Below are positions 1 to 56,625 of a DNA stretch of 62,276 nucleotides, one piece after another. Source of the stretch: Actinomycetes bacterium (lineage in GTDB: Bacteria > Actinomycetota > Acidimicrobiia > IMCC26256 > PALSA-610); the NCBI GenBank assembly GCA_031404355.1, contig JANNHK010000018.1, forward strand, positions 1 through 62,276, read 5' to 3'. The notes beneath the pieces are model-generated. The model ran no database searches. It saw only the letters and a list, made by a program, of their open reading frames with translations, and was not told the origin of the DNA. The position numbers and the translations under genes were made by a program. Position 1 is the first letter of the stretch, and each line of letters starts with the position of its first letter.

Positions 1-1
1 C

Positions 2-1087: not shown

Positions 1088-1155
1088 CAACCGTGCGGAC
1101 GCAGCGGAGGCCCGCCTGCCGCAGGCCCCTCGACCGGGAGCGGAGGGAGCCATGA
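1084..1155 (+). repeat. MIRU-like intercistronic repeat unit (72 nt) forming a 23-codon mini-ORF
   Basis: The ATGA at 1084-1087 overlaps the upstream stop. The ATGA at 1152-1155 overlaps the downstream start. It shares the blocks ACCGTGCGGACGCAG / GCCGCAGGC / GAGGGAGCCATG with the copies at 36807-36875 and 48821-48958. Confidence 0.6.
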
Positions 1156-2378: not shown

Positions 2379-2383
2379 CGAAC

Positions 2384-3001: not shown

Positions 3002-3010
3002 CGGGCAGGC

Positions 3011-4890: not shown

Positions 4891-4904
4891 GTCCGGGGGG
4901 CAGG

Positions 4905-14895: not shown

Positions 14896-14952
14896 GCGGG
14901 CAGCCTCCGCCCGGCGCGTTAACCCGCCCGTAACGCCTCGGAAGCCCCGCTG

Positions 14953-16047: not shown

Positions 16048-16062
16048 GCGATTCTCATGCGG

Positions 16063-17118
16063 CTACGAGCTCCGGCCCTCGATCACGATGCGACCTTGAC
16101 GGGACCGTCCGGGCCTCCGCTCTGCGCCTGGCCCGGTTGCAATTCGCCGAGCATGGCTCGGAGTTCGGGGGACGGTGAGCCACCAGTCGTTCGTGTCGCT
16201 TGCGTACACGAAGCCGTCTGGCATCTGCGTTCCGAGCTGGCCCGGGCCCTTGGCGTCCCACCACGGGTGTTCGGGGAGCACCACGTAGGTGTCGCCCGCG
16301 TCGATCGTGTGGCGCGACTCGTCGCCCGTGATCATCAACTCGTGCAGCTTCTCACCGGGACGGATGCCGACGATCTCGCGGGGCACGCCCGGCGCGATCG
16401 CCTCGGCCAGGTCGGTGACCCGCATCGACGGGATCTTCGGGATGAAGATCTCGCCGCCCTCCATGTGGTCCAGCGCGTGCAACACCAGGTCGACCGCTTG
16501 CGGCAGCATGATCCAGAACCGCGTCATGCGCTCGTCGGTGATGGTGATGCGACCCTCGGTCGCCATCTGCCGGCAGAACAGCGGCACGACCGAACCGCGG
16601 GAACCGACGACGTTGCCGTAGCGAACACACGCGAGGCGGGTGTCGCGCTGGGCCGCGTACGCGTTGCCCTGCACAATGATTTTCTCCTGGCACAGCTTCG
16701 TCGCTCCGTACAGGTTGACGGGGTTCACGGCCTTGTCGGTCGAGAGCGCGATGACGCGCGGCACCCGAGCGTCGATGGCCGAGTCGACGACGTGCTGGGC
16801 GCCGAGCACGTTTGTGCGCACTGCCTCGAACGGGTTGTACTCGCACGCGGGGACCTGCTTCATGGCGGCCGCGTGGATGAGGATGTCGGCGCCCTCGGCG
16901 GCGCGCGACATTCGGGCGCGGTCGCGTACGTCGCCGATCAGGTAGCGCACCTGGTCTTCGCCGAAGCGGGTGCGGAGTTCGGATTGCTTGAGCTCGTCGC
17001 GGGAGTACACGCGCACGACGGCGTCGGGCCAGGTCGTGGTCACCCGTTCGATGAATGCGTTGCCGAACGAGCCCGTGCCGCCGGTGAGCAGGATCGTTGA
17101 GCCGTTGAGGTCCGTCAC
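16063..17118 (-). CDS. pseB: UDP-N-acetylglucosamine 4,6-dehydratase (inverting), PseB/FlaA1/CapD-like
   Basis: 'ILLTGGTGSFGNAF', 'STDKAVNPVNLYGATK' (SDR YxxxK), 'RYGNVVGSRGSV'. Confidence 0.85.
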   Translation of the reverse strand: MTDLNGSTILLTGGTGSFGNAFIERVTTTWPDAVVRVYSRDELKQSELRTRFGEDQVRYLIGDVRDRARMSRAAEGADILIHAAAMKQVPACEYNPFEAVRTNVLGAQHVVDSAIDARVPRVIALSTDKAVNPVNLYGATKLCQEKIIVQGNAYAAQRDTRLACVRYGNVVGSRGSVVPLFCRQMATEGRITITDERMTRFWIMLPQAVDLVLHALDHMEGGEIFIPKIPSMRVTDLAEAIAPGVPREIVGIRPGEKLHELMITGDESRHTIDAGDTYVVLPEHPWWDAKGPGQLGTQMPDGFVYASDTNDWWLTVPRTPSHARRIATGPGAERRPGRSRQGRIVIEGRSS

Positions 17119-17124
17119 GAGGAC

Positions 17125-17151
17125 TCATCGGCATCGGGGCCGGGGCGTTGA
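17125..17151 (-). promoter_or_regulatory. Candidate sigma-28/WhiG-type promoter for pseB-pseC (and possibly the giant gene); would give a near-leaderless mRNA
   Basis: Minus strand reads TCAA-N15-GCCGATGA (consensus TAAA-N15-GCCGATAA). The -10 box ends 6 nt before the GTG at 17118. Confidence 0.35.
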
Positions 17152-17184
17152 GCGCCCCCCGCCCGAATACCGCGGCCGATGACC

Positions 17185-17255: not shown

Positions 17256-17867
17256 ATGACCACCGAGACCGAGCGCCTGGAGGGGCTGTGGTCGGGCGAG
17301 TTCGGCGACGAGTACGTCGACCGGAACCTCGGCTCCTACGAGGTCCGCGCCCCGTTCTGGCGGGCGCTGACCGACGAGTTGGCCCCGGCCGGCGTGCTCG
17401 AGGTGGGTTGCAACGTCGGTGGCAACCTCCAGTGGATGGCGGGGGCCGTCCCGCCCGAGCAGACGTTCGGCGTCGACGTGAATCGCAAGGCGCTGGAGTT
17501 GATGGAGGCCCGGATTCCGGGCGTGCAGGCGGTGCTGGGTTCGGCCCGGACGCTTCCGTTCGACGATGCCTCGATCGACCTCGTCTTCACGATGGGTGTG
17601 CTCATCCACCAGCCGGAGGAGTCGCTCCCGGCTGTGATGGACGAGATGGTTCGGGTGAGTCGTCGCTATCTGTTGTGCGGCGAGTACTTCGACACGAGCA
17701 CCGTCGAGGTGGCGTATCGCGGCCACGAGGGTGCGCTCTTCCGACGCGACTACGGCGCGCTGTTCGAGTCGCGTTTCCCGGATGAGCTCGAGTTCGTGCG
17801 GAAGGGCTTTCTCGGTCGCGATGCCGGTTGGGACGACATCACGTGGTGGCTGTTCCGGCGGCGTTGA
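17256..17867 (+). CDS. Pseudaminic acid biosynthesis-associated SAM-dependent methylase
   Basis: The start was moved to the ATG at 17256 (AGAGG 8 nt upstream). 'VLEVGCNVGGNL' is methyltransferase motif I. 'DLVFTMGVLIHQ' and the tail 'ITWWLFRR' are typical of this family. Confidence 0.8.
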   Translation: MTTETERLEGLWSGEFGDEYVDRNLGSYEVRAPFWRALTDELAPAGVLEVGCNVGGNLQWMAGAVPPEQTFGVDVNRKALELMEARIPGVQAVLGSARTLPFDDASIDLVFTMGVLIHQPEESLPAVMDEMVRVSRRYLLCGEYFDTSTVEVAYRGHEGALFRRDYGALFESRFPDELEFVRKGFLGRDAGWDDITWWLFRRR

Positions 17868-19578
17868 CCACCGCCCGAACTCTCGCGGCCGCGGTCTCGA
17901 TCACCGCATCCCATTCCATGTCGAGATGCCGGTAGACGAGTTCGACCGTAGGGAACCACGGCGACGTATCGGTCCCGAGGTCCGACCAGTCCCAACGGTT
18001 ACCCATCATCGCGGTCGGCCGGCCCAGCGCGCCCGCGAGCATCGCGACGGCGTTGCGGGGCGCGACCACGAAGTCGAGGCATTCCATGAGTGCTGCGACA
18101 CCGTCGAAGTCGTCCTTCAGGTTGAGGTCGTCCCAACGGTGCACCGTGATGCCGAAACGTCGCTCCGCGGTGAGGAGTTCGCGTTCGCAGTCGTCGTACT
18201 GGAGGTTGACCCAGGTGACGCCGGGAATCTCGAACAGCGGCCCCCATTCCGGCAACGTCGTGTACTCGAGCCGGCGTTCCGCGGTCTGCACGCCGCTCCG
18301 CCACGAGACACCGACGTACGGCGGCGGCCCGATCGCGGCCAACGTCGATCGCCAGTGCTCGATGCGTTCGGGATCGGCGGTGAGGTACGACCGCCGGTCG
18401 GGGAAGTGGGCGACCGTGGGGCGTACCAAGAGCGGCAGGCTCCCGGACGGAATGTCGCGGTCGTACTCGATGTCGACGACCAACTCCTGACCGAGTGGGT
18501 TCGTGGTCAGCTCGCGGACCTGCGCCCGTGGAAACGATCGTGTGAACAGCGGGACGAGTCGTGTGTTGCACTCGATGATGACGTTCGGCGTCGCCGCGAT
18601 GAGATCGGGGTAGCACGACGCGAACAGGATCTCGTCGCCGATTCCCTGTTCGCGGTACACCATGACCGTCGTCCCGGGATCCTCGGGCGTCCACCGGGCC
18701 GCGCCCGTCACCCGCTCGACCCCTCGGGGCCCTCCCTTGTTCGCGTACTCCCAGTCGTCCCAGCCGCCGGTCAGATCGCCGGCGGTGAGCCGCACGTACC
18801 CGCGGTTGGCCTTGATGACGTCGACGTCTTCGCCGCCGAGTTCGATCGCCTGGTCCAGACGTGCGAGTGCTTCGTCGAAGCGGCCGCACCCGGCGAGCGC
18901 GATCGCGAGGTTGCCGTGTGAGTGGGGAGTATCACCTGCGATCTCGTAGGCGCGTTCGAGCGCATCGACCGCCGCCGGCATCTCACCGAGGTACCGGTAG
19001 TTGTTGCCGATGACGGTCCATACCTCGTAGTCGTTGTCCCATCCGAGTTCGGTGCAGCGGCGCAGGCTTGCCTCGGCGCTGCGCAGGCGCCCGAGCTTGT
19101 GGAGGACTTCACCGAGGACGCCGTGGTTCGGGCCGTAGGTCGGTTCGAGCACCGTTGCGCGGCGCAGTGCCGCGACGGCTTCGTTGAGGCGGCTGCGCAG
19201 CTTGTACACCTGGCCGAGGTTGTGCCACGGCTGCCAGTCGTCGGGCGCGATGGCGATCAGCGCCTTCAGGATTTCCTCGGCCTCGTTGTATTCGGCGGCG
19301 CGGCGCAGCGCGTTGGCGAGGTTGTTGTAGAAGCCGAGGGTCTTCTCGCCGGGAGGGCCGACGCGCGGCTCGGCCGCGCGCAGCAGTTCGACCGCCTCTT
19401 CGTGGTCGCCTCGATCCGAGCAGATCATGGCGAGGAGCTGGGCGGCGCGCGGTTCGCCCGGATCCGAGGCGAGGACGCGTCGGAGCAGCTTTTCGGCCCG
19501 GGTCGCGTCGCCGTGCTGCTGGTGCTTTTGGGCGCGGACCAGGAGCTGATCGACGTCGGCGGGCAAAGTTCGCGGCAT
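17839..19578 (-). CDS. TPR-repeat protein fused to a GT9-like (heptosyltransferase-fold) glycosyltransferase domain; candidate flagellin glycosyltransferase
   Basis: The N-terminal ~260 aa are TPR repeats. The C-terminal half has 'VYREQGIGDEILFASCYPDL' and 'DFDGVAALMECLDFVVAPRNAVAMLAGALGRP', which are GT9-like motifs. Confidence 0.7.
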   Translation of the reverse strand: MPRTLPADVDQLLVRAQKHQQHGDATRAEKLLRRVLASDPGEPRAAQLLAMICSDRGDHEEAVELLRAAEPRVGPPGEKTLGFYNNLANALRRAAEYNEAEEILKALIAIAPDDWQPWHNLGQVYKLRSRLNEAVAALRRATVLEPTYGPNHGVLGEVLHKLGRLRSAEASLRRCTELGWDNDYEVWTVIGNNYRYLGEMPAAVDALERAYEIAGDTPHSHGNLAIALAGCGRFDEALARLDQAIELGGEDVDVIKANRGYVRLTAGDLTGGWDDWEYANKGGPRGVERVTGAARWTPEDPGTTVMVYREQGIGDEILFASCYPDLIAATPNVIIECNTRLVPLFTRSFPRAQVRELTTNPLGQELVVDIEYDRDIPSGSLPLLVRPTVAHFPDRRSYLTADPERIEHWRSTLAAIGPPPYVGVSWRSGVQTAERRLEYTTLPEWGPLFEIPGVTWVNLQYDDCERELLTAERRFGITVHRWDDLNLKDDFDGVAALMECLDFVVAPRNAVAMLAGALGRPTAMMGNRWDWSDLGTDTSPWFPTVELVYRHLDMEWDAVIETAAARVRAVVNAAGTATT

Positions 19579-19654
19579 GGCTGTTCAATCGGCCGGAATG
19601 ACGATCCCGTAAGGCCCCGGAGGCGCGCTCAGGCGCCAGACTCAGGCGCCAGAC

Positions 19655-19957
19655 TCAGGCAAGAGTTTCGAACCGGGCCTTGCCGCGGGGTGTGGTGTCC
19701 GGGCGGCGGGGGCGGCCGGCTAGATCCGCCCGAATCCGGTCGCGTTCGGCCGTCAACCGCCGGTCGATCTCCGCGGCGCGGTCGAGGAGTGCGTGCGCGC
19801 GTCCCCGCTGCGGTTCGGGAACGGGGCCGGCGAGTGCCGGTGGTTCGAAACCGGCGGGGACCGATGCGTCGGTACCGAGTTCCAGCACGGCTTCGCAGAG
19901 TTCGAGGCGCGCCTCGAACTCGTCGAGGGCGGCGACCCAGCTCTCGGAAGCGGTCAT
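19655..19957 (-). CDS. Hypothetical 100-aa protein translationally coupled to fliS
   Basis: The ATGA overlap at 19954-19957 links it to the fliS stop. The product 'MTASESWVAALDEFEARLELCEAVLEL...' looks helical. I recognised no family. Confidence 0.5.
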   Translation of the reverse strand: MTASESWVAALDEFEARLELCEAVLELGTDASVPAGFEPPALAGPVPEPQRGRAHALLDRAAEIDRRLTAERDRIRADLAGRPRRPDTTPRGKARFETLA

Positions 19958-22798: not shown

Positions 22799-22864
22799 GC
22801 TGTGCTCCTTTCGCCGGCCCGGCCCTCGAGGCAGCGGCGCCCATCGGCGCCGATCCCCCGAAGG

Positions 22865-22889
22865 GTGGGGGAGGCATCACCTCCCCCAC
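22865..22889 (-). terminator. Stem-loop downstream of flagellin gene 1 (10-bp GC stem)
   Basis: The arms gtgggggagg and cctcccccac flank a 5-nt loop, between the fliC stop (22910) and the fliD start (22798). Confidence 0.5.
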
Positions 22890-22909: not shown

Positions 22910-24124
22910 TTACTGGAGGAGCCGCAGGATCGACTGCGGTGCCGCGTTCGCCTGGGCGAGCATGGCGGTGCCGGCCTGGAGGAGGATCTGGTGGCGGGTG
23001 AAGCTCACCATCTCCAGGGCCATGTCGGTGTCTCGGATCCGGGATTCGGATGCCGTGACGTTCTCCGTGATGTTCTGGAGGTTGGCGACGGTTGTCTCGA
23101 ACCGGTTCTGGGTGGCGCCCAGGCGGCCCCGGACGGTTGTCAATGCCGTGATGGCGGCGTCGGCGAGGAGGCCGGCCGTGACATGACTCGCCGTGTCGGT
23201 GACGTCGATGCCCGACAGTGCCATGAACGCTCCGACCGTGCCGGACGTGATGCGGATGTCGTCGATCGACACCGCGATCTGGTTGGTCGTGTTGACGTTG
23301 GCGCCGACTTGGAACACGCCGCCGGTGCTCGGGGTGAGTGACACCGAGCCGGTGGTGATGATCGATACGCCGGTGCCCCGGTTGGAAATCGTGATCTTGG
23401 TGCCCGCCGATGTGGAGTTCCGGACGATCTCGGTCGACCAGACACCGTTGCTCAGGTCCCGGACCGTGGCGGTGACGGTGCCGGTGAAGCCGGCGGTCAG
23501 GGCCGCACTGATCCTGGTCTGGAGTTCGGTCGCGTACGACGCCGCGGTGACGTAGGTCCCGGTGGTGAGCGTGACGGTCACCGACAAGCTGTTCCCGGAA
23601 GCGTTGTCGACGGTGAGGTCGAACGTGACGCTGGCGCTGCCGACGAGGGCACCGGCCGCGAGGCCGACCGAGGTGTCGATCTTGCGGGCCGACTGGGCAC
23701 CGAACGATCCGTTCAACAGCACCTGGGACCCGAACGTGGTCGTGAGCCCGATCCGGTCGATCTCGGAGCGGAGTTGCACGATCTCGTTCTGGGCCGCGGT
23801 GCGGGCGGCCGAGTCGGACGACGCCGTGTTGGCCGACTGCACGATGAGGTCGCGAATACGGCCCAGCATCGTCTGGACTTCGGTCAGTGCACCTTCTGCG
23901 GTCTGCACCACCGACACGCCGTCTTGGGCGTTGCGGGTGGCCTGACGCAGACCTGACACCTGGGCCCGCAGGCCCTGGCTGATGACCAGGCCCGACGCGT
24001 CGTCGGCGGCCCGGTTGATGCGATACCCGGACGAGAGCTTCTCGAGGCTCTTGCCGAGCACACCTTGCGTCATTGTGAGGTTTCGGTAGGCGTTGAACGC
24101 CATGATGTTCTGGTTAATGCGCAT
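22910..24124 (-). CDS. fliC: Flagellin (404 aa), copy 1
   Basis: The start was moved to the 'MRINQNIMAFNAYRNL' ATG at 24124 (GGAGGAG upstream). Conserved flagellin N- and C-termini are present ('...LAQANAAPQSILRLLQ'). Confidence 0.95.
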   Translation of the reverse strand: MRINQNIMAFNAYRNLTMTQGVLGKSLEKLSSGYRINRAADDASGLVISQGLRAQVSGLRQATRNAQDGVSVVQTAEGALTEVQTMLGRIRDLIVQSANTASSDSAARTAAQNEIVQLRSEIDRIGLTTTFGSQVLLNGSFGAQSARKIDTSVGLAAGALVGSASVTFDLTVDNASGNSLSVTVTLTTGTYVTAASYATELQTRISAALTAGFTGTVTATVRDLSNGVWSTEIVRNSTSAGTKITISNRGTGVSIITTGSVSLTPSTGGVFQVGANVNTTNQIAVSIDDIRITSGTVGAFMALSGIDVTDTASHVTAGLLADAAITALTTVRGRLGATQNRFETTVANLQNITENVTASESRIRDTDMALEMVSFTRHQILLQAGTAMLAQANAAPQSILRLLQ

Positions 24125-24150
24125 GTGCGCGTCTCCTCCATGAAGTAGGC

Positions 24151-24175
24151 AACGGACCCAATCCGTAGGTCCGTT
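24151..24175 (-). promoter_or_regulatory. Candidate CsrA-binding hairpin in the flagellin-1 5' leader
   Basis: The minus-strand RNA is aacggacc-UACGGAUUG-ggtccgtt, an 8-bp stem with GGA in the loop. A second GGA overlaps the SD (cauGGAGGAGac). Confidence 0.45.
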
Positions 24176-24387
24176 CTTTGAGCGGGCGCCCCCGTACTCA
24201 CTGTGAGTGAGTCGGCAGCGCTCGTGTTTTCGGCGCCGTGGCCACCGTGCTGTAGGCCGAGCGGCCCATTTCACGTTTTTGCCTACGGATCGCCCCGGGC
24301 CTGCCGACGCACGCCCCCGCCGCACGCCCAGGGCCGGCGGGGCCCTTGGGCGGGGGGAGGTGGCGAACCCGACGACCGGGCGCGCGA

Positions 24388-24465: not shown

Positions 24466-25680
24466 TTATTGGAGGAGACGCAGGACCGCCTGCGGTGCCG
24501 CGTTCGCCTGGGCGAGCATGGCGGTGCCGGCCTGGAGGAGGATCTGGTGGCGGGTGAACTCCACCATCTCCAGGGCCATGTCGGTGTCTCGGATCCGGGA
24601 TTCTGATGCCGCGATGTTCTCGGTGATGTTCTGGAGGTTGGCGATCGTCGCCTCGAACCGGTTTTGGACGGCGCCGAGTTTGCCCCGGAAGCTCGAGGTT
24701 TCCGTGACGGCGGCGTCGATGAGCAACCCCGCCGCGATGTGGCTCGACGTGTTGGTGACGTCGATGCCCGACAGTGCCGTGAAGACGCCCATCGTGCCGC
24801 TGGTGATGCGGATGTCGTCGATCATCAACGTGATCTGGTTGACCGTGTTGACGTTGGCGCCGACTTGGAACACGCCGCCGCTACCGGGGGTGAGTGCCAC
24901 CGAGCCGGTGGTGATGATCGATACGCCGGTGCCCCGGTTCGCGATCGTGATCTTGGTGCCCGCCGATGTGGAGTTCCGGACGATCTCGGTCGACCAGACA
25001 CCGTTGCTCAGGTCCCGGACGAAGGCGGTGACGGTGCCGGTGAAACCGGCGGTGAGCGCCGCGCTGATCCTGGTCTGCAGCTCGGTCTGGTACGACGCCG
25101 CAGTGACGTAGGTACCGGTGACCAGCGTGACGGTGACCGAGAGGCTGTTCCCGGAACCGTTGTCGACGGTGAGGTCGAACGTGACGCTGGCGCTGCCGAC
25201 GAGGACACCGGCCGCGAGGCCGGTCGCGACGTCGGTCTTGCGGGCCGCCTGGGCACCGAACGAACCGTTCAACAGCACCTGGGCACCGAACGAGGTCGTG
25301 TTCCCGATCCGGTCGATCTCGGCACGGAGTTGCACGATCTCGTTCTGGGCCGCGGTGCGGGCGGCCGAGTCGGACGACGCCGTGTTGGCCGCCTGCACGA
25401 TGAGGTCGCGCATACGGCCCAGCATGTTCTGGACTTCGGTCAGTGCACCTTCTGCGGTCTGCGTCACCGAGACGCCGTCTTGGGCGTTGCGGCTGGCTTG
25501 ACGCAGACCCGACACCTGGGCCCGGAGGCCCTGGCTGATGACCAGACCCGACGCGTCGTCGGCGGCCCGGTTGATGCGGTAACCCGACGAGAGCTTCTCG
25601 AGGCTCTTCCCCAGGCTGCCCTGCGTCATCGTAAGGTTTCGGTAGGCGTTGAACGCCATGATGTTCTGATTGATGCGCAT
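24466..25680 (-). CDS. fliC: Flagellin (404 aa), copy 2
   Basis: It has the same length as copy 1 and near-identical termini. Substitutions are scattered across the protein, with somewhat more in the middle and C-proximal part. Confidence 0.95.
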   Translation of the reverse strand: MRINQNIMAFNAYRNLTMTQGSLGKSLEKLSSGYRINRAADDASGLVISQGLRAQVSGLRQASRNAQDGVSVTQTAEGALTEVQNMLGRMRDLIVQAANTASSDSAARTAAQNEIVQLRAEIDRIGNTTSFGAQVLLNGSFGAQAARKTDVATGLAAGVLVGSASVTFDLTVDNGSGNSLSVTVTLVTGTYVTAASYQTELQTRISAALTAGFTGTVTAFVRDLSNGVWSTEIVRNSTSAGTKITIANRGTGVSIITTGSVALTPGSGGVFQVGANVNTVNQITLMIDDIRITSGTMGVFTALSGIDVTNTSSHIAAGLLIDAAVTETSSFRGKLGAVQNRFEATIANLQNITENIAASESRIRDTDMALEMVEFTRHQILLQAGTAMLAQANAAPQAVLRLLQ

Positions 25681-25807
25681 CTGCGCGTCTCCTCCGTGAT
25701 GTCCGCAGCCCGACTTTCGTCGGACCCCGACTCCGTCGGCGTGTGCGGTTCGCCTACTTGCTCTGGGACCTGTTCGACCGGAGCACGCGCCGGATTAGGA
25801 GTTCGGA

Positions 25808-26692
25808 TCAGGAATGTGTGCGCCCGCCGGCGATCGCCACCGGCTGGCTCTCCGGCAGCGGCCGGTCCGACACGCGCGACCGGTAGTCGGACCCGGCGGC
25901 GACGGCGGCGTAGTAGGCGACCTTGCGCCGGGCCACGCGCCCGTTGGGCCTGGCCTCCGGCGCGACCGCGCTCGGCTCGAGCTGAGAGTTGATGCCGTCG
26001 CGCAGCAGGGCGAGGGCCTCGGCGCGGAGTTGCGAGACGCGCGACTCACTGACGCCGAGCTCGTCGGCAATCTCCTGCATCGAGCGCTCCTCGAAGAAGT
26101 ACTGCACCACGACGTGGCGCAGACGTTCGGGGAGCGCCTCGATCGAGTCGATGAGGTACGCCTTGCGTTCGCGGTCGAGGATCGTGTCCTCGGGCCCGTC
26201 GCCGTGGATGGCGAGGAACGACTCGGCGTCGCCGTCGAGCACGAGCGACTCGTAGTTCAGCACCGTCGCGCGGTGTACGTCGTCGACGAGTTTGTGCACC
26301 GTCTCGATCGGGACGCCGAGCGCGCCTGCCACTTCTTCCTGCGTCGGTGCGCGGCCCAGCCGGTTGGTGAGTTCTTCGCCCGTGGCTTGTAACCCGCGGG
26401 CGCGTGAGCGCACCGACCGGCTCGCCCAGTCGCGGCCGCGCAACTCGTCGAGCAGCGCGCCGCGGATACGGGTCGAGGCGAAGCGGTCGAACGCGATACC
26501 GCGTTCGGGGTCGAAGCTGCGGGCGGCCTGGGCGAGGCCCAGCATCCCCGCGCTCACGAGATCGCTGCGGCTGACATGGTTTGGTACCCGGTGCGCGATC
26601 TCCGAAACGACGTATTGCACCAACGGAAGGTGCGCACGGACCAGCCGGTCCTCGTTGGCTGCCCGTTCCAGGTCGATGGTCTTGGTCTTCAT
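25808..26692 (-). CDS. fliA: FliA/WhiG-family (sigma-28) RNA polymerase sigma factor with a ~55-aa C-terminal extension
   Basis: Region 2 'LVRAHLPLVQYVVSEIAHRV...DLVSAGMLGLAQAARSFDPERGIAFDRFASTRIRGALLDELR'. Region 4 'SMQEIADELGVSESRVSQLRAEAL'. Confidence 0.9.
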   Translation of the reverse strand: MKTKTIDLERAANEDRLVRAHLPLVQYVVSEIAHRVPNHVSRSDLVSAGMLGLAQAARSFDPERGIAFDRFASTRIRGALLDELRGRDWASRSVRSRARGLQATGEELTNRLGRAPTQEEVAGALGVPIETVHKLVDDVHRATVLNYESLVLDGDAESFLAIHGDGPEDTILDRERKAYLIDSIEALPERLRHVVVQYFFEERSMQEIADELGVSESRVSQLRAEALALLRDGINSQLEPSAVAPEARPNGRVARRKVAYYAAVAAGSDYRSRVSDRPLPESQPVAIAGGRTHS

Positions 26693-26772: not shown

Positions 26773-26865
26773 AGTTTGGTACCGCATACCGTGGTGCCCG
26801 TACCGCGATGAGAGGTAATGGGAGGTATGGTGTCCCGGTCCGGGGGACGGGGAGGAAACGGGAAC

Positions 26866-27498
26866 GTGGACAGTCGCACCCACGCGGTCATCGTCGACGA
26901 GCTGCCGCTGGCGCGCACGGGAATGGCAGCCGTGCTGCGTGACCTGGGCTTCGAGCTGTTGAGCGAGACCCATTCGGGCCGGGAGGCAGCCGCCATCGCG
27001 GCCATCGACTCGCCCGCCCTCGTCGTTGTCGGCGCCGCTACCGACATCACCTCCGTCGAGACCGCGCGCCGGGTCATGCGCGTGCGGCCGGTTCCGGCGG
27101 TCATCGTGTTGGTGCCTCCCGCCGCGGAGCAGCCGGTCGGCTACCTGCTCGCACTCGGCATACGCGGCGTCGTGCTGCGCAGTGGTCCGCCCGACGACTT
27201 CGCGACGGCGGTCGAAGCAGTCATGAAGGGCACCCAGTACGTCGCCCCGGGCTTGCATCGCTCGCTCGCGGGGTCGGTGCAACCCAAGGCGGCCGGCGCC
27301 GACCACGGCCTGACGGCCCGGGAGCGAGAGGTGCTCGCCTTCCTCGCCGAGGGCCGATCAAACCGCGAGATCGCCGCCGCGCTCTCTGTGACGCTCGCCA
27401 CCGTGAAGTCGCACCTCGTGCGCATCTACGCCAAGTTGGGTGCGACCAACCGCAACGAGGCCCTCGGCAAGGCTGTTTCCCTCGGCCTGTTGGGCTGA
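26866..27498 (+). CDS. NarL/LuxR-family regulator with an atypical (probably non-phosphorylatable) receiver domain
   Basis: The start was moved to the GTG at 26866 (GGGAGGAAA upstream). The C-terminal HTH is 'LTAREREVLAFLAEGRSNREIAAALSVTLATVKSHLVRIYAKLG'. The receiver reads 'PALVVVGAATD' where 'PDVVLMDLxMP' is expected. Confidence 0.8.
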   Translation: MDSRTHAVIVDELPLARTGMAAVLRDLGFELLSETHSGREAAAIAAIDSPALVVVGAATDITSVETARRVMRVRPVPAVIVLVPPAAEQPVGYLLALGIRGVVLRSGPPDDFATAVEAVMKGTQYVAPGLHRSLAGSVQPKAAGADHGLTAREREVLAFLAEGRSNREIAAALSVTLATVKSHLVRIYAKLGATNRNEALGKAVSLGLLG

Positions 27499-27550: not shown

Positions 27551-27578
27551 TTCACAAACGCGCGGGCCAGGCCGATGA
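27551..27578 (+). promoter_or_regulatory. Candidate sigma-28-type promoter for flgN-flgK-flgL-fliW-csrA
   Basis: TCAC-N15-GCCGATGA. The -10 octamer is identical to those at 17125-17132 and 17204-17211. It lies 34 nt upstream of the flgN ATG. Confidence 0.4.
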
Positions 27579-27612: not shown

Positions 27613-28098
27613 ATGTCGCTCTCTGACGTATCGAACATCTTGTGGCGCGAGCGCCAGCTCCTCGAACTCCTCGTGTTCAAACTCGAGGAGGAGCAGCTCG
27701 TCCTCGCGGCCGGTCGCAACAAGTGGCTGGCGCATGCCACGAGAGAGGTCGAGACCGTTCTCGACGAGATCAAGCGCGTCGAACTCGAGCGCAGCATCGC
27801 CGTCTCCGAACTCGGTCGCGAGATGGAGCTGTCGAACGCCCCGAGCCTGACCGAACTCTCCACCGTCGCGGAGCCGCCGTGGGACGGCATCTTCGCCGAA
27901 CACCGCCGCGCGCTCATGACGCTCGCGCAAGAGATCGACAGCGTCGCGAAGTCGAATCGCGATCTGCTCCTGCGCGGCCAGCAAGCGACGCGGGAGACGC
28001 TGACCGCAATGGGCGAGATCGATATCGAGGCCTACAACGCCAGCGGCGCCGTCACCGACCGCACCCTCGCCCTTCGCCTCGTCGACGAGGCGATATAG
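27613..28098 (+). CDS. flgN: Flagellar chaperone FlgN-family protein
   Basis: 'NILWRERQLLELLVFKLEEEQLVLAAG' is an FlgN-like helical protein. It sits immediately upstream of flgK. Confidence 0.75.
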   Translation: MSLSDVSNILWRERQLLELLVFKLEEEQLVLAAGRNKWLAHATREVETVLDEIKRVELERSIAVSELGREMELSNAPSLTELSTVAEPPWDGIFAEHRRALMTLAQEIDSVAKSNRDLLLRGQQATRETLTAMGEIDIEAYNASGAVTDRTLALRLVDEAI

Positions 28099-30707: not shown

Positions 30708-31133
30708 ATGATTGAAGCCGACCTCTTGGGCAGCGCAGCCACCGAGTGCGTGGAAGTCACGTTCGCGGCCGGCCTGCCCGGATTTCCCGACGCGCACCAG
30801 TTCCAGCTCACGCCCTGGGGCCCGGCCGAGACGCCGTTCATGCTCTTGACCGCGGTCGACGACCACGACGTGGGTTTCGTGGTGGTCCCGCCGTGGGTCT
30901 TCTACCCCGAATACGAGTTCGACCTCGACGCCGGCTCGATCGAGCGGCTCGCGTTGCGAGAGGCCACGGACGCGCTCGTCCTGTGCGTCGTCACGTTGAA
31001 GGACCGGCCCGAGGACGCGACGATGAACCTGCTCGGCCCGATCGTGATCAACCGCCACACCCTCGAAGCGGCGCAGGTGGTCTTGCCCGCCTCCGGGTAC
31101 AGCGTGACGGCTCCGCTCGCCATCGCGAGCTGA
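30708..31133 (+). CDS. fliW: Flagellar assembly factor FliW
   Basis: 'VTFAAGLPGFPDAHQFQL...PFMLLTAVDD...VVVPPWVFYPEYEFDL...TMNLLGPIVIN'. Confidence 0.9.
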   Translation: MIEADLLGSAATECVEVTFAAGLPGFPDAHQFQLTPWGPAETPFMLLTAVDDHDVGFVVVPPWVFYPEYEFDLDAGSIERLALREATDALVLCVVTLKDRPEDATMNLLGPIVINRHTLEAAQVVLPASGYSVTAPLAIAS

Positions 31134-31249: not shown

Positions 31250-31498
31250 GTGCTCGTGCTCACCCGACGAGCGAACCAGAGCATCATGATCGGTCACGAG
31301 ATCGTCGTGACCGTTCTCGAGGTTCGTGGCGACCAGGTCCGGCTGGGAATCAAAGCCCCCCGCTCGATCGACGTGCATCGCGAAGAGATCTTCGCCCAGC
31401 TCCAGCAGGCGAACCGCGACGCCGTCAAGCCCTCCCCGGCCGCGCTCGAGTTGCTCTCTGAGCTGAAGACCCCCGCCTCCGAGGACGACCGCCGCTAA
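31250..31498 (+). CDS. csrA: Carbon storage regulator CsrA (flagellin translational repressor type)
   Basis: GTG at 31250 after GGAGGGAGGA. 'VLVLTRRANQSIMIGHEIVVTVLEVRGDQVRLGIKAPRSIDVHREEI'. Confidence 0.9.
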   Translation: MLVLTRRANQSIMIGHEIVVTVLEVRGDQVRLGIKAPRSIDVHREEIFAQLQQANRDAVKPSPAALELLSELKTPASEDDRR

Positions 31499-47162: not shown

Positions 47163-48254
47163 GTGCGCGCCTTTTTCTCTTTCTCGTCGCTCCGCCGCGC
47201 CATTCCTGTGGCCGTGGCGCTTGCCCTCCTGGCGCCGGCGCAAGCCGCGACCGCGGCCCGCGATCCATTGGCCGAAGCCGAGGCGCGTGTCACCAGCGCC
47301 CAGCGCGCCGCCAACGAAGCCGCCGAACAGTACGAGGAAGCCCAGAGCGTCTACTGGGGTCTCGAAGGGGACATCGACCGCACCCGAACGGCTGTGACCG
47401 CGACCGAAGCGAGCGCCGCGGCGCTGACATCCGTCGCGCAGCAGCGTGCGGTGGAGGCGTATACCGAGGGCGGGCTCGACCTCGATGTCGTCGTCGAAGG
47501 CAACGACGTGCTCGAGGCCCAGCGTCGCAACGAACTTCTCGACCGGGTCAACGAAGACGGCAACCTCGCCGTCGAGCAACTCGGAGCCGTTACCGAGGAC
47601 CTCCGTGTGCAGGAGGCGAGTCTCGCCGACCAGATCGCGCAGCAGGAACAAGTCGTCGCGCAGATGAAGGAGACCGAGTCGCAGCTGCGCGACGCCCTCG
47701 CCGCCGCCGAGCGGGCCGAGTCCGAACTGCGGGCGCGCCTCGAACGCGAACGCAAGGCCCGTGAATTCCAGGAACGGTTGCGCCGGGCGCGCGCCGCGGC
47801 ATCGACGAGTTCGAGCAGCGGCAGCAGCCGAAGCGGCGGGTCGGCCGGCACGATCGTCGCGAGCGGATCGTGGGTGTGTCCGGTGCCGGGCGGGTCGTCG
47901 TTCGGCGACTCGTGGGGTGCGCCCCGCTCCGGTGGCCGCAGCCACCAAGGTGTCGACATGATGGCGTCGTCGGGTACGCCGGTCGCGGCCGTTGTGGGCG
48001 GGTCGATCCGCCAGAGTTCCGGCGGTCTCGGCGGCCTTTCCATCTGGTTGAACGGCAGCGACGGCAATACGTACTACTACGCCCACTTGCGCGACTTCGC
48101 GGGTGGCTCGCGTTCGGTCTCGGCGGGCGAATTGATCGGTTCGGTCGGCAGTACCGGGAACGCCAACGGCGGTGCCCCGCACCTCCACTTCGAGATCCAT
48201 CCGGGCGGGGGACGGGCCGTCAACCCCTACCCCACCGTGCGCTCCCGGTGCTGA
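47163..48254 (+). CDS. Secreted coiled-coil M23-family metallopeptidase
   Basis: A signal peptide and long coiled coil, then '[14 protein letters not shown]' and '[19 protein letters not shown]'. Confidence 0.85.
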
Positions 48255-48266
48255 CGATCAGCGGGC

Positions 48267-48824
48267 TTGCGTTGGCCAGCCGCCCCCTTCGCGGGCACTA
48301 GCCTCCGACCGGTGACTGCATCCGAACGCATCCAGCGCCTGCTCGACCCGCAATTCGTCGCGGCGCTCGACCGGCACGACGTCGACGCGTTGCGCGAGCT
48401 GAAGGCCGAGGCCTCCGACATCGAACTCTCGGTGTCGTACTACCGCCGCCTCGCGCAAGCCCGCATGGAAATTCTCGAAGCGGAACGCGCCCGCCGCGAA
48501 CGGGGGGGAGACATTTCCGAACTCGTCGCCGACCTGCCCCGCATCCTCGGGTCGGGTGGCGGGCGCGCCGCACCTGCCGACTCGCGCGTTCCCGACGCCG
48601 ACACGCCGGCGGTCGAGCTGAAGTGGGAGGACGGTCGCGAAGAGCTGGTCGCCGACCTGACGCTCGCGAACCTGCCAACGCTCGACGAAGCTGAACTCGC
48701 CGACACCGTCGCACGCCTCAGCGATTTCGAGCGCGAGCTTTCCGATATTCGCCGCGACCTTCACGGAGTGATCGACGCGCTCGAGCGGGAGATCGCGACG
48801 CGGCAGGTAGCCGGAACCGCGTGA
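48267..48824 (+). CDS. RsiG-like helical protein (candidate c-di-GMP-dependent anti-sigma factor); alternative start GTG 48312
   Basis: Two E(X)3S(X)2R(X)3[Q/H](X)3[D/E] motifs: 'ELSVSYYRRLAQARME' (48423-48470) and 'ERELSDIRRDLHGVID' (48729-48776). Confidence 0.6.
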   Translation: MRWPAAPFAGTSLRPVTASERIQRLLDPQFVAALDRHDVDALRELKAEASDIELSVSYYRRLAQARMEILEAERARRERGGDISELVADLPRILGSGGGRAAPADSRVPDADTPAVELKWEDGREELVADLTLANLPTLDEAELADTVARLSDFERELSDIRRDLHGVIDALEREIATRQVAGTA

Positions 48825-48961
48825 CCGTGCGGACGCAGCCGCAGCCCTTGGACGCCGCAGGCCGCGATGGCTTCGGCGAGGGAGCCATGTGGACCGTGCG
48901 GACGCAGCCGCAGCCCTTGGACGCCGCAGGCCGCGATGGCTGCGGTGAGGGAGCCATGTGA
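48821..48961 (+). repeat. Tandem pair of 69-bp MIRU-like intercistronic repeats forming one 46-codon mini-ORF
   Basis: The units are 48821-48889 and 48890-48958, with 4 mismatches. GTGA overlaps the upstream stop. ATGTGA overlaps the downstream GTG start. Each unit ends in GAGGGAGCCATG. Confidence 0.8.
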
Positions 48962-49332
48962 CTGAGCCGTTCGAGTCGCGGCTGCACGACCTGGGCGAGT
49001 TCATTCGTGACCAACGCCGGAACGCGCGGCTCTCGCTGCGCAAGTTGAGCGAAGCGGCCGGCATCTCGAATCCGTATCTCAGCCAAATCGAGCGCGGGTT
49101 GCGCAAGCCATCGGCCGAGATCCTCCAGTCGATCGCCAAGGGGCTGCGGATCTCGGCGGAGACGCTGTACGTCCGGGCCGGCATCCTCGACGAGCGCCGG
49201 GAGGTCGAAGCCGACTTGGTCGAAGTGGTGCTGGGCGACCCGACCCTGAACGACCGCCAGAAGCAGGTGCTGGTCGAGATCTACCGGTCGTTCCAGGCCG
49301 AAAACCGGGGCCAGGACGCGGAAGCGGGCTGA
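48958..49332 (+). CDS. XRE-family helix-turn-helix transcriptional regulator
   Basis: 'LSLRKLSEAAGISNPYLSQIERGLRKPS'. Confidence 0.85.
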   Translation: MTEPFESRLHDLGEFIRDQRRNARLSLRKLSEAAGISNPYLSQIERGLRKPSAEILQSIAKGLRISAETLYVRAGILDERREVEADLVEVVLGDPTLNDRQKQVLVEIYRSFQAENRGQDAEAG

Positions 49333-54411: not shown

Positions 54412-55900
54412 GTGAACCTCGCCGCTGCGCTGCTCGAGACCGCCGCGACTGCCCCCGACCGGCCCGCCCTGTTGACGGCCGCGGGTGTCGTCACCCACGG
54501 CGAACTTGCCGACTGGGTCGCCCGGGTCCGGGTCCTCCTCGTGGCCAACGGCGCCGGGCCCGGCTCCCGAGTCGCCATCGTCGTCGGCAACGAGGTCGAG
54601 TTCGTTGCCGCCTACCTGGCGACCCTGGCGGCCGGCGCGGTGGCCGTGCCGCTCAATCCGATTGCACCGTCGCACGAACTGGGTCGCGAACTCGCGGTCG
54701 TCGAACCGGCGCTGGTCGTCACAACCACTGAGCACCTCGACCTCGCGCGGCGAGCCTGCTCTCACGAGGACATCACCGCGCCGACACTCGCGCTCGACGC
54801 CGAGGTGTCCGACGCGCGTCACACGGCACCGTTCGTCGACCGCGAGTCGGGCGACCTCGCGGTGCTGTTGTTCACCGCCGGTACGGCCGGCGCGCCGAAA
54901 GCCGCGATGCTCACGCACGGATCGTTGCTCGCAAACATCGACCAGATGCAGGGGCACGCGGGCCTTCGCATCCACGAGGACGACGTCGTGCTCGGTGTCC
55001 TGCCGTTCTTCCACGTGTTCGGATTGAACGTCGTGGTCGGTCTCGGACTGCGTGCCGGCGCCGCCGTCTCGCTCGTCGAGCACTTCCATCCGGCCGAAAC
55101 ACTGGCGCGCATTCGCGACGACAAAGCGACGGTCGTGGCAGGTGTCCCGGCGATGTACGCGGCCTGGCTGGCAGTTCCCGACGCGCCCGCCGACGCGTTT
55201 TCGACGGTACGGCTGTGTGTGTCCGGCGCCGCGGCACTCTCCGAACGTGACGCGCGAGGAATGCTCGAACGGTTCGGTGTCGAAGTGCACGAGGGTTACG
55301 GGTTGACCGAAGCGTCGCCGGTCGTGACGACGAGCGCGGTCGCGGCAACGCCCCGACCGGGCTCGATTGGTCCGCCGTTGCCCGGTGTCGACGTGCGCCT
55401 CGTCGACGCCGACGGCGCGGCGGTGCTCGACGGCGACCCGGGCGAAGTGCTCGTGCGCGGCGCCAACGTGTTCGCGGGGTACTGGCACGACGCCGAGGCG
55501 ACCACGCGCGTGCTGACCGACGACGGGTGGTTGCGCACCGGCGACATCGCGGTCGCCGACGACGACGGCTGGCTCACGCTCGTCGAGCGGGCCAAGGACG
55601 TCATCATCGTTTCCGGTTTCAACGTTTTTCCCCGGCGAGGTCGAGGACGCGCTGGCCGACTATGCCGATGTCGTCGAAGTGGCCGTGGTCGGCGAGCCCC
55701 ACCCGCGCACGGGCGAGACGGTGGTCGCGTACGTGGTGGCGCGGCCCGGTGCGGCGCCCGATCCGGTGGCCCTGCTCCGCCACGCCGGTCGCCGGATCGC
55801 GCGTTACAAGCTCCCGACCCGGGTCGAGGTCGTCGCCGAACTCCCCCGCTCGTATACCGGGAAGCTCCTCCGGCGCGTCCTCACCGGCGACGCGAAATAA
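54412..55900 (+). CDS. AMP-dependent acyl-CoA synthetase/ligase, apparently frameshifted at ~55624-55632
   Basis: 'LLFTAGTAGAPKAAMLTH', 'GYGLTEASP', 'WLRTGDIAVADDDGWLTLVERAKDVIIVSGFNVFP'. The C-terminus, 'EVEDALADYADVVEVAVVGEPHP...YKLPTRVEVVAELPRSYTGKLLRR', continues in the frame of ORF 55679-55900. Confidence 0.8.
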
Positions 55901-55923
55901 CCGGCAGATTTCGCTTCCACACT

Positions 55924-55941
55924 TTGAGAATCTGCTCACAA
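55924..55941 (+). promoter_or_regulatory. Candidate Rex operator (ROP) upstream of rex
   Basis: TTGAGAA-TCTG-CTCACAA against consensus TTGTGAA-N4-TTCACAA (6/7 plus 6/7). It lies 19 nt upstream of the rex GTG. Confidence 0.45.
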
Positions 55942-55959
55942 GGTCGGTACCGTGGAGGA

Positions 55960-56625
55960 GTGACAGCTACCCCGGGCCGCAGGATCCCCGAGGCGACAGT
56001 GGCCCGGCTCCCGCTCTACTACCGGGCGTTGCTCGAGGCCGCCGAGCACCAGGTGGCGACGATCTCCTCCGAGCGACTCGCCGAGCTCGCGGGCGTGAAC
56101 GCGGCCAAGGTGCGCAAGGATCTCTCGTACCTGGGCTCCTACGGCACGCGCGGCGTCGGATACGACGTCGAGTACCTGCTGCACGAGATCTCACGCGAAC
56201 TCGGTCTCACCCGCGACTGGCCGGTCGCGATTGTCGGCATCGGAAACCTGGGCCGCGCCTTGGCGAACTACCGCGGCTTCGGCGCCCGTGGGTTCCGGGT
56301 CGTCGCCCTCATCGACCAGGACCCCGCGCTCGTGGGCCAGGAAGTCGCCGACCTCGCAGTCGAGTCGACCGACGACCTCGACCGCATCGTGGCTGATCGC
56401 GGCATCGCGATCGCGATTCTCGCCACGCCCGCGGGCGCGGCGCAGGAAGTCGCCGACCGCCTCGTCGCCGCCGGTGTGCGTTCGATCCTCAACTTCGCGC
56501 CGGCGGTATTGGCGGTGCCGGAGGGCGTTTCGATGCGTAAGGTCGACCTCGCGATCGAGCTCCAGATCCTCTCCTTCTACCAACTGCGCAAGGGCGGGCT
56601 CCCCGCCGGCGTGCTCCCCGGGTAG
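55960..56625 (+). CDS. rex: Redox-sensing transcriptional repressor Rex
   Basis: GTG at 55960 after GGAGGAG. 'IPEATVARLPLYYRAL', 'ISSERLAELAGVNAAKVRKDLSYLGSYGTRGVGY', 'IVGIGNLGRALANY'. Confidence 0.9.
   Translation: MTATPGRRIPEATVARLPLYYRALLEAAEHQVATISSERLAELAGVNAAKVRKDLSYLGSYGTRGVGYDVEYLLHEISRELGLTRDWPVAIVGIGNLGRALANYRGFGARGFRVVALIDQDPALVGQEVADLAVESTDDLDRIVADRGIAIAILATPAGAAQEVADRLVAAGVRSILNFAPAVLAVPEGVSMRKVDLAIELQILSFYQLRKGGLPAGVLPG

Follow-up and report, generated by a model that had tools for sequence, protein, structure and literature searches.

The locus considered in this study lies on the plus strand of the window, which is the whole stretch of 62,276 nucleotides that was analyzed. 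An open reading frame of 185 amino acids extends from position 48267 to 48824 and begins at a TTG codon. Because the start is set 15 codons further in, at a GTG at 48312, both in the public gene call and in all homologues, the first 45 nucleotides of this frame are probably untranslated, and the real gene, rsiG, is probably 48312-48824 with a GTG start and a product of 170 amino acids. Upstream of rsiG is a conserved neighbor, a gene for a coiled-coil M23 peptidase (47163-48254, plus strand; Pfam Peptidase_M23, E=2.5e-18), which has an equal position relative to rsiG in loci L001, L002 and L003. Downstream is a conserved partner, an XRE-family HTH regulator gene (48958-49332, plus strand; Pfam HTH_3, E=5.9e-13). 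This rsiG-XRE gene order is kept in L001, L002, L003 and L246, whose regulators are 80-81% identical to the one described here, and in other Acidimicrobiia the XRE gene begins directly at the end of rsiG or within it. The gap between these two genes in the window holds an inserted tandem duplication of 2 x 69 bp, to which no strand is assigned (48823-48960; TRF period 69, 2.0 copies, 97% matches); it is not found in L001, L002 or L246 and is specific to the window. The gene sits in a conserved housekeeping block, as read to 10 kb in L001 and L002 and to +/-3 kb in L246, where the immediate rsiG neighbors are the same genes as in the other two. No sigma factor gene lies near rsiG within 10 kb on L001 and L002 or within the +/-3 kb covered by L246, and no flagellar gene lies within 10 kb of it on L001 and L002.

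The preliminary description of this DNA had suggested that the product is RsiG-like, that it looks helical and that it carries two copies of the RsiG signature motif, and all three suggestions are supported by our analysis. A search against Pfam gives a significant match to the RsiG family PF22802 in two stretches of the protein (E=3.4e-20; 71.9 bits, where the gathering cutoff is 27), and the same family is carried by all 120 homologues among the matches listed. By phmmer, residues 39-183 of the 185-amino-acid form align with residues 27-167 of the S. venezuelae RsiG chain in 6PFJ (E=9.3e-8), while NCBIfam, which is without any RsiG model, returns no match for the product. The AF2 model, with a pLDDT of 82.9, contains two long helices, 24-63 and 126-167, that bear the motifs. 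When this model was compared with the PDB by Foldseek, the top three matches were the S. venezuelae RsiG chains 6PFV_T, 6PFJ_T and 6PFV_E (probability 1.00, TM 0.61-0.68); only RsiG chains matched significantly, and the next match had an E value of 0.86. Judged by profile, alignment and modeled fold, the product of 48312-48824 is an Acidimicrobiia RsiG anti-sigma factor of the monomeric, twin-motif type, which would be expected to bind c-di-GMP and to sequester a sigma factor. A near-identical protein from another MAG, MDZ4824875.1, is called 'hypothetical protein' at NCBI and can be named as RsiG, which is a gain in annotation.

Both motif strings are present exactly where the preliminary description had placed them within the frame. 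The first predicted c-di-GMP motif, ELSVSYYRRLAQARME (48423-48470, plus strand; helix 24-63), reads E38-X3-S42-X2-R45-X3-Q49-X3-E53 in the 170-amino-acid numbering, and the second, ERELSDIRRDLHGVID (48729-48776, plus strand; helix 126-167), reads E140-X3-S144-X2-R147-X3-H151-X3-D155. Copy 1 thus ends in Glu in place of Asp (E53), and copy 2 has His in place of Gln (H151). Alignment of 24 Acidimicrobiia homologues reveals that E38, S42, R45 and E53 are invariant in copy 1, with Q49 at least 90% conserved, and that all five positions are invariant in copy 2, so that both substitutions are fixed in this clade. The pattern E...S..R...[QH]...[DE] occurs exactly twice in the window, both times in the rsiG frame (six-frame ORFs of at least 60 amino acids, 100,637 amino acids). 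When the protein was shuffled 200,000 times, two copies never arose, and the probability of at least one copy was 0.0008; the twin motif is not a matter of chance. The exchange of Gln for His has been described, for helix 1, as compatible with guanine stacking (PMC7005675), and Glu53 stands in place of the base-reading Asp and keeps its carboxylate. Twin-motif RsiG proteins are already known from three of four Acidimicrobiales species, as published in 2021 (PMC8325347) with a supplement in which the RsiG genes of Acidithrix, Ferrithrix and Ilumatobacter are identified, and the rsiG gene described here adds to them.

About 21.6 kb from rsiG lies the sole sigma-28-type gene found in the window, at 25808-26692. 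As had been proposed, it is the only WhiG/FliA-type sigma gene here and lies beside two flagellin genes, with the correction that it is encoded on the minus strand. The flagellin genes adjoin it at 24466-25680 and 22910-24325, both on the minus strand, with fliD and fliS just beyond, and on its other side a gene for a LuxR-type regulator is followed by flgN-flgK-flgL. The regulator, a LuxR-type response regulator (26818-27498) upstream of flgN (27613-28098), does occupy the flgM slot as previously described, and the further statement that the late flagellar cluster has no FlgM-like ORF agrees with our scan of its called genes and ORFs. No called gene matches FlgM, and a coding-like orphan ORF at about 19655-19954 on the minus strand has no Pfam or NCBIfam match. 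Absence of FlgM is a known trait of actinobacterial flagellar clusters. The flgN-flgK-flgL operon is closed by fliW (30708-31133) and csrA (about 31252-31498), and GGA motifs are found on both sides of the flagellin Shine-Dalgarno sequences. By analogy, a FliW-CsrA checkpoint probably acts on flagellin, similar to the FliW-CsrA-flagellin partner switch of Bacillus subtilis, which we take to be a late-assembly checkpoint that operates without FlgM. FliW-CsrA has no relation to RsiG and works at the level of translation, not on a sigma factor. The window contains no GGDEF, EAL or PilZ gene, and Rfam and tRNA scans of it gave no match, hence no c-di-GMP riboswitch.

Since a permissive scan for sigma-28 promoters is noisy in GC-rich coding sequence, it was combined with inspection of intergenic regions and with a stricter pattern under a shuffle control. 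The strict pattern, YTYA-N16-GCCGAT, has three matches in the window against 0.28 expected, and none of 100 shuffles reached three. These predicted sigma-28-type promoters are TTCA-N16-GCCGATGA (27551-27578, plus strand) upstream of flgN-flgK-flgL-fliW-csrA, CTCA-N16-GCCGATGA (17125-17152, minus strand) upstream of a pseB/pseC-like sugar operon that putatively serves flagellin glycosylation, and CTTA-N16-GCCGATTG (19586-19613, minus strand) upstream of a TPR-protein gene (17839-19578). The permissive scan adds a weaker sigma-28-like candidate, TACA-N16-GCCGAAAA (24227-24254, minus strand), upstream of flagellin 2, and similar weaker candidates for flagellin 1 (25733-25761) and fliD (22841-22869).

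It had further been suggested that RsiG gates the flagellar sigma factor of the window, and this suggestion is not supported. The sigma factor passes the general FliA_WhiG model TIGR02479 (200.8 bits against a cutoff of 189.6) but fails the NCBI WhiG equivalog NF004935 (178 bits against 343), and on a profile of Acidimicrobiia WhiG2 it scores 172.6 bits, where S. venezuelae WhiG reaches 356.8 and E. coli FliA 206.1. The three c-di-GMP contacts of WhiG, K57, G61 and R62, are all lost, being Q25, S29 and E30 in the window sigma, and the K/G/R triad is absent from all of the 150 cluster representatives nearest to it. Any side chain at WhiG position 61 has been reported to clash with the ligand, so the Ser at this position should do so, and an acidic Glu takes the place of Arg62. 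The RsiG contacts T235, L236, Y239, E240 and L242 read V, Q, F, E and R, so that E240 alone is kept; the Arg at the last position is shared by 105 of 150 clade members. The signature YSPLVKY[VA]AGRV, common to the WhiG proteins of Rubrobacter and Streptomyces, reads HLPLVQYVVSEI in the window sigma, whose gene lies between flagellin and the LuxR regulator in the flagellar cluster and not at a dprA-xerC-whiG-M23-rpsB-tsf locus. Denis et al. 2026 (PMC12871210 = PMC13595943) found by two-hybrid assay and AF3 that the flagellar-cluster WhiG1 of Geodermatophilus does not bind RsiG. The window sigma agrees with the description of WhiG1, a FliA/WhiG subfamily member located in a flagellar cluster and without the RsiG and c-di-GMP contacts, and we label it WhiG1-like from its residues, scores and location. 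By its sequence it is non-WhiG2 in character and fits the WhiG1-type sigmas, not the expected partner of RsiG. Thus, because its contact residues are changed, NF004935 fails and WhiG1 has been shown not to bind RsiG, the window sigma is unsupported as the RsiG partner.

A better candidate appears to be the paralogue WhiG2, with which RsiG pairs according to Denis et al. 2026 (PMC12871210 = PMC13595943), whose evidence is a two-hybrid assay, AF3 and the joint distribution of the two proteins. In G. obscurus the AF3 ipTM is 0.86 for RsiG with WhiG2 and 0.14 for RsiG with WhiG1. Of 120 genomes sampled, 15 have a WhiG2-type sigma, recognized by the signature YSPLVKY[VA]AGRV, and all 15 are labeled Acidimicrobiia; the sigmas read through to sigma-4 have intact RsiG contacts, with all eight contact residues present. 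At NCBI, proteins of this kind are entered as 'RNA polymerase sigma factor WhiG [Acidimicrobiales bacterium]', and their locus in Acidimicrobiia, dprA-xerC-whiG-M23-rpsB-tsf, is syntenic with that of Streptomyces whiG. It was the scan of labeled genomes that gave the taxonomic assignment; genes common to the metagenome WhiG2 groups and the window gave none. No WhiG2 gene was found in the 62-kb window and no RsiG at any of 120 metagenome WhiG2 loci, and the compared assemblies do not overlap, with RsiG in ERZ25039533 and ERZ25039458 and WhiG2 in ERZ25039600. The cognate sigma factor of RsiG is likely a WhiG2 orthologue elsewhere in the genome, at the dprA-xerC-whiG-M23-rpsB-tsf locus, and its presence in this MAG is predicted from related genomes.

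Taken together, the explanation that we consider probable combines a monomeric RsiG, a WhiG2 partner encoded elsewhere in the genome and a WhiG1-like sigma that serves the late flagellar genes. By homology to the S. venezuelae protein, the two long antiparallel helices of RsiG would each present one E-X3-S-X2-R-X3-[Q/H]-X3-[D/E] motif, and both motifs would jointly clamp a c-di-GMP dimer. Loaded in this way, RsiG would sequester the WhiG2-type sigma-28 paralogue, which a drop in c-di-GMP would set free. Transcription of the late flagellar genes would depend chiefly on the WhiG1-like sigma, and FliW-CsrA would act as a checkpoint on flagellin. Points against this explanation are the Glu that ends motif copy 1, the lack of GGDEF, EAL and PilZ genes in the window, and the fact that RsiG and WhiG2 were not found together in any single genome examined.

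An alternative explanation is that c-di-GMP-armed RsiG directly sequesters the sigma factor at 25808-26692 and so replaces the absent FlgM as the late flagellar gate. The location of this only sigma-28 of the window some 21.6 kb from rsiG, the failure to find FlgM in the cluster, the sigma-28-type promoters on the late flagellar operons and the still open question of what anti-sigma acts on WhiG1-type sigmas are all consistent with it. However, the changed c-di-GMP contacts, the change of four of the five sigma-4 contacts to RsiG, including L242 to R, and the experiment in G. obscurus argue against a direct interaction; so do the better-fitting WhiG2 found across the class Acidimicrobiia and the housekeeping location of rsiG, more than 10 kb away from flagellar genes in L001 and L002 and in like surroundings over +/-3 kb in L246. 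Direct gating is therefore very unlikely in our view. The connection could also be indirect, if RsiG and c-di-GMP control a WhiG2, itself predicted in this MAG, that recognizes the late flagellar promoters of the WhiG1-like sigma. The strict-pattern promoters read (C/T)T(C/T)A-N16-GCCGAT(G/T)(A/G) and fit both the WhiG1 and the WhiG2 consensus, which overlap extensively in flagellar clusters (PMC12871210 = PMC13595943), and we regard this indirect route as possible, if somewhat unlikely.

A change in the function of the RsiG homologue itself should also be considered. The Glu53 found for the base-reading Asp in every clade member might alter c-di-GMP binding, or the protein might act with the co-transcribed XRE regulator instead of with a sigma factor. 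The latter is in line with the tight linkage, in L001, L002, L003 and L246, between rsiG and an XRE gene that is itself highly conserved. But all other ligand-contact positions are strictly conserved, Glu keeps the carboxylate, the fold as a whole is that of RsiG, and it is difficult to see why a WhiG2 with intact contacts to c-di-GMP and RsiG should be kept across the class if RsiG did not work. Such a change of function is most unlikely. That c-di-GMP gates late flagellar transcription through RsiG in flagellated Acidimicrobiia seems to us doubtful, whether by way of a WhiG2 that shares sigma-28 promoters or because the variant RsiG (Glu53/His151) binds the WhiG1-like sigma with another surface and so takes the anti-sigma role that FlgM leaves vacant in actinobacteria.

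The preferred reading, with WhiG2 as the partner of RsiG, can be compared with several known systems. With the RsiG-(c-di-GMP)2-sigma-WhiG complex of S. venezuelae (6PFJ/6PFV; Gallagher et al. 2020, PMC7005675) the RsiG of the window, about 30% identical over near full length (TM 0.61-0.68), shares the Pfam family, the monomeric twin-motif architecture, the two long antiparallel helices and the E, S and R of both copies, while it differs in the Glu and His fixed in the Acidimicrobiia clade and in a central loop that is not obviously conserved. Because the host of the window, unlike S. venezuelae, is flagellated and presumably non-sporulating, the downstream regulon of RsiG must differ. In Rubrobacter radiotolerans, a unicellular actinobacterium, the (RsiG)2-(c-di-GMP)2-WhiG complex (7LQ2-7LQ4; Schumacher et al. 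2021, PMC8325347) has a homologous helix 1 (E=0.02, residues 38-94) and a similar ligand-binding logic, but its RsiG is a single-motif homodimer, whereas the window RsiG has both motifs in one chain. FlgM is likewise an anti-sigma for a sigma-28-family protein, FliA, but has no homology to RsiG, and its release depends on export through the hook-basal body and not on a nucleotide. A like arrangement is that of G. obscurus (Denis et al. 2026; PMC12871210 = PMC13595943), which also has its own flagellar-cluster WhiG1-type sigma without the contacts, an RsiG elsewhere in the genome and no FlgM; there WhiG2 is present and shown to bind RsiG, whereas here it is predicted from other Acidimicrobiia genomes.

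In summary, the window is a clear case of a flagellated member of the Acidimicrobiia with an RsiG and a flagellar-cluster WhiG1-like sigma, and with no FlgM found in the cluster. The same arrangement in Geodermatophilus has prompted the question of how WhiG1 sigmas are held in check. If RsiG and WhiG2 do feed into these flagellar promoters, c-di-GMP would control the transcription of motility genes directly, by means of a sigma/anti-sigma pair.

The ORF at 48267..48824 (+), which encodes 185 aa and had been put forward in a preliminary description as a c-di-GMP-armed anti-sigma factor of the RsiG type, is present in the window (62,276 bp, 68.6% G+C), and both 16-residue motif strings reported for it are found where they had been located. 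The public gene call (P0001, 170 aa) starts 15 codons further in, at the GTG at 48312, as do all homologues, and we therefore take 48312-48824 as the rsiG gene. When every six-frame ORF of 60 aa or more in the window is searched (100,637 residues in all), the relaxed pattern E...S..R...[QH]...[DE] turns up exactly twice, both times inside the rsiG ORF, and 200,000 shuffles of the RsiG protein sequence never yielded two copies. The twin motif is not due to chance. In an alignment of 24 homologues with 59-76% identity, E38, S42, R45 and E53 of copy 1 and E140, S144, R147, H151 and D155 of copy 2 are invariant, and Q49 is at least 90% conserved. Since these positions are invariant, the Asp-to-Glu change in copy 1 and the Gln-to-His change in copy 2 are variants fixed in the clade, not signs of decay. 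The former falls at the base-reading position of the motif, and published work describes the swap of Q for H where the residue stacks as tolerable (PMC7005675).

The family assignment is borne out by a profile match to Pfam PF22802, 'RsiG-like' (E=3.4e-20, 71.9 bits versus a cutoff of 27). A phmmer search against PDB sequences aligns residues 39-183 with residues 27-167 of S. venezuelae RsiG (6PFJ/6PFV, E=9.3e-8), with both motifs in register, and matches helix 1 of the Rubrobacter RsiG (E=0.02), which has a single motif, unlike the twin-motif protein of the window. The helical product expected earlier is predicted by a confident AF2 model built from the 24 homologues (pLDDT 82.9, pTM 0.76), in which long helices at 24-63 and 126-167, each bearing one motif, are connected by a partly disordered loop. 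Foldseek against the PDB recovers three S. venezuelae RsiG chains (probability 1.00, TM 0.61-0.68, about 30% identity) and no other match with E<0.8. Sequence and predicted structure could not make the assignment any more secure. NCBI gives a near-identical protein no name beyond 'hypothetical protein [Actinomycetota bacterium]', and those homologues with source names come from Acidimicrobiia MAGs, some already annotated as 'RsiG family protein'. In 2021, twin-motif RsiG was described in three of four Acidimicrobiales reference species, Acidithrix, Ferrithrix and Ilumatobacter (PMC8325347), so the protein is a new member of a family that is not new in the class.

The proposal of a c-di-GMP-armed anti-sigma-28 factor was probably right in kind, but its choice of the flagellar-cluster sigma factor (25808-26692, minus strand) as the target is probably wrong, as the contact residues are changed. 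This gene, the only sigma-28-type gene found in the window, as described previously, lies in the late flagellar cluster, whose (-) arm reads, in coordinate order, fliS, fliD, two flagellin genes and the sigma gene; the divergent (+) arm carries a LuxR-type response regulator, flgN, flgK, flgL, fliW and csrA. Its product scores above the cutoff of the broad FliA/WhiG model TIGR02479 (200.8 versus 189.6) but well below that of the WhiG equivalog NF004935 (178 versus 343). In an alignment with S. venezuelae WhiG, whose chain numbering is native (K57-Y-V-A-G61-R62), the c-di-GMP contacts K57, G61 and R62 are replaced by Q25, S29 and E30, and the RsiG contacts T235, L236, Y239, E240 and L242 by V, Q, F, E and R. 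Gly61 is reportedly essential in WhiG, where any side chain would clash with the ligand (PMC7005675). When 1.84 billion cluster representatives were searched exhaustively, 47,116 relatives of the window's sigma factor were found; each of the nearest 150 outscores S. venezuelae WhiG, none has K/G/R at the contact positions, acidic residues predominate at position 62, and 105 have Arg at position 242. These features agree with a recent study in which the sigma-28 factors of actinobacteria fall into two clades (Denis et al. 2026, bioRxiv and mSystems; PMC12871210/PMC13595943). According to that study, WhiG1 is tied to the flagellar cluster, has no c-di-GMP/RsiG contact residues and, in Geodermatophilus obscurus, is not bound by RsiG in a two-hybrid assay and AF3 predictions, while WhiG2 is under RsiG regulation and its presence correlates with that of RsiG (r=0.88). 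The same study finds FlgM missing in almost all actinobacterial flagellar clusters, so its absence among the ORFs scanned here is a known gap, and names no anti-sigma factor for WhiG1. On every feature tested, the sigma factor of the window looks like a WhiG1. It also has a C-terminal extension of about 60 residues past region 4 (aa 235-294; 25808-25990), with a motif G251-x-x-A-R-R-(R/K)-x-A-Y260 ... R273 that is common to most of the nearest 150 representatives and absent from WhiG2 and FliA. Because the anti-sigma factor of WhiG1-type sigmas is not known, this tail could be a regulatory handle.

The sequence 'YSPLVKY[VA]AGRV' around K57-R62 is common to Rubrobacter and Streptomyces WhiG, and the window's sigma reads HLPLVQYVVSEI at this site. 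The signature was back-translated and scanned in metagenome contigs and in a one-genome-per-species collection, yielding at least 120 loci in each. Among the matches listed for the latter, 15 of 120 belong to Acidimicrobiia, including Microthrixaceae, Ca. Microthrix, Rhabdothermincola, Acidimicrobiaceae and 'Acidimicrobiales bacterium'; they keep K57, G61 and R62, and those read to sigma-4 have the RsiG contacts 'TLYYYEGL' or close variants. A profile built from nine of these Acidimicrobiia proteins gives E<=1e-30 for 7,999 of 8,000 candidates scored, with top matches named 'RNA polymerase sigma factor WhiG [Acidimicrobiales/Acidimicrobiia bacterium]' at NCBI. It scores S. venezuelae WhiG at 356.8 bits, E. 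coli FliA at 206.1, the window's sigma at 172.6 and the clade of the latter at a median of 138. The Acidimicrobiia locus reads dprA-xerC-whiG-M23-rpsB-tsf-pyrH-frr, an arrangement common to most Streptomyces loci among the matches listed, and therefore these whiG2 genes are positional orthologues of Streptomyces whiG. When assembly accessions were compared, no genome was found to carry both RsiG and WhiG2, and the two genes are not linked within 10 kb on two contigs of other assemblies (L001, L002) or at the listed metagenome WhiG2 loci. From the wide distribution of WhiG2 in the class and the published co-occurrence with RsiG, we infer a WhiG2 in this MAG as well. Acidimicrobiaceae MAGs (L132, L169, L170) and metagenome loci (L006, L030, L035, L039) hold a divergent WhiG2 subgroup of about 310 aa, with 'YSPFVKY[IV]AGRV' and an extended C-terminus that finishes in ...RARLQLLAS; its genes are not at the canonical dprA-xerC-rpsB locus. 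The signature also occurs in genomes labelled Acidobacteriota (L148, with actinobacterial dprA-xerC-whiG-rpsB-tsf synteny) and Firmicutes (L201), which are probably mis-binned or mislabelled contigs.

The rsiG gene itself sits in a housekeeping block (transglutaminase-like, Lon-N, DksA-like, ThiS/MoaD, M23 peptidase, RsiG, XRE-HTH, MshA, YbjN and ProC, continuing to Rex and HemA) whose order is repeated around RsiG homologues on contigs of other assemblies. No flagellar or sigma genes lie within 10 kb of the homologue on L001 and L002, and on L003 and L246, which cover a few kb only, the immediate neighbours match. In these other genomes the start of the XRE gene falls at the rsiG stop codon or overlaps it (the two genes abut or overlap in L001, L002 and L246), which suggests an rsiG-XRE operon there. 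In the window, a tandem duplication of 2 x 69 bp (48823-48960, perfect register, 97% identical) separates the rsiG stop from the start of the intact XRE gene, whose product is 80-81% identical to its homologues; this may be an insertion that uncouples translation of the two genes, or else an assembly artefact. The window contains no GGDEF, EAL or PilZ gene, and no riboswitch was found in it. A 738-aa gene call (54412-56625, +) joins an AMP-binding enzyme to a Rex-like module (Put_DNA-bind_N and CoA_binding), which are two separate genes in L001 and L002; a true fusion, a frameshift and an artefact of gene calling are all conceivable.

The promoters leave room for a less direct route. YTYA-N16-GCCGAT occurs three times in the window versus 0.28 expected (at least three in 0 of 100 shuffles), always intergenic and correctly oriented: before flgN (TTCA-N16-GCCGATGA), before a pseB/pseC-like sugar operon (17125-17152, CTCA-N16-GCCGATGA) and before a TPR gene (CTTA-N16-GCCGATTG). 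Weaker candidates precede fliD and both flagellin genes; rsiG has no sigma-28-type promoter upstream. The published consensuses of WhiG1 and WhiG2 overlap (Denis et al. 2026, PMC12871210/PMC13595943), so these promoters are not assignable to one sigma factor. An indirect c-di-GMP input to the late flagellar promoters via WhiG2 is possible. We consider it unlikely that RsiG and c-di-GMP reach flagellar promoters in these organisms. The strong promoter at 17125-17152 borders a sugar-modification island (1-17152) with a DegT aminotransferase (14953-16047), a PseB-like dehydratase (16063-17118), a cytidylyltransferase-GNAT fusion, a GATase and a HisF-like protein, probably a flagellin-glycosylation operon controlled by the flagellar sigma. 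The island also contains a giant ORF of 3,513 aa (4357-14895, -) with S8 subtilase, PKD, CAP, CarboxypepD_reg, Ig-like and DUF11 domains; its product is presumably a very large protease that is secreted or sits on the cell surface.

Several other genes of the flagellar cluster deserve mention. The LuxR/GerE-type regulator upstream of flgN, noted earlier, is confirmed at 26818-27498 (+), divergent from the sigma gene; its receiver domain is sub-threshold (Response_reg, 17.7 bits versus 30.2), and the protein is possibly an orphan or otherwise atypical response regulator, at the site where other phyla have flgM. Directly downstream of fliS, a coding-like ORF of about 100 aa (19655-19954, -), beginning MTASESWVAALDEFEARLE, has no match in Pfam or NCBIfam; judging by its position, it might encode a FliT-like chaperone or a regulator not yet recognised as such. 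In the second flagellin gene (22910-24325, -), about 69 codons of the longest ORF precede the Flagellin_N domain; the true start is likely near 24118, with a sigma-28-like promoter (24227-24254) and the SD-like sequence GGAGGAG just upstream of it. The flgN-flgK-flgL operon ends with fliW (30708-31133) and csrA (about 31252-31498; Pfam CsrA, E=2.8e-23), and GGA motifs flank the Shine-Dalgarno sequence in the leaders of both flagellin genes (25681-25720 and 24119-24150), as in GCGGACATCACGGAGGAG. These features fit the FliW-CsrA-flagellin checkpoint of the Bacillus system, which does not require FlgM, and suggest that such a checkpoint on flagellin translation takes the place of FlgM here.
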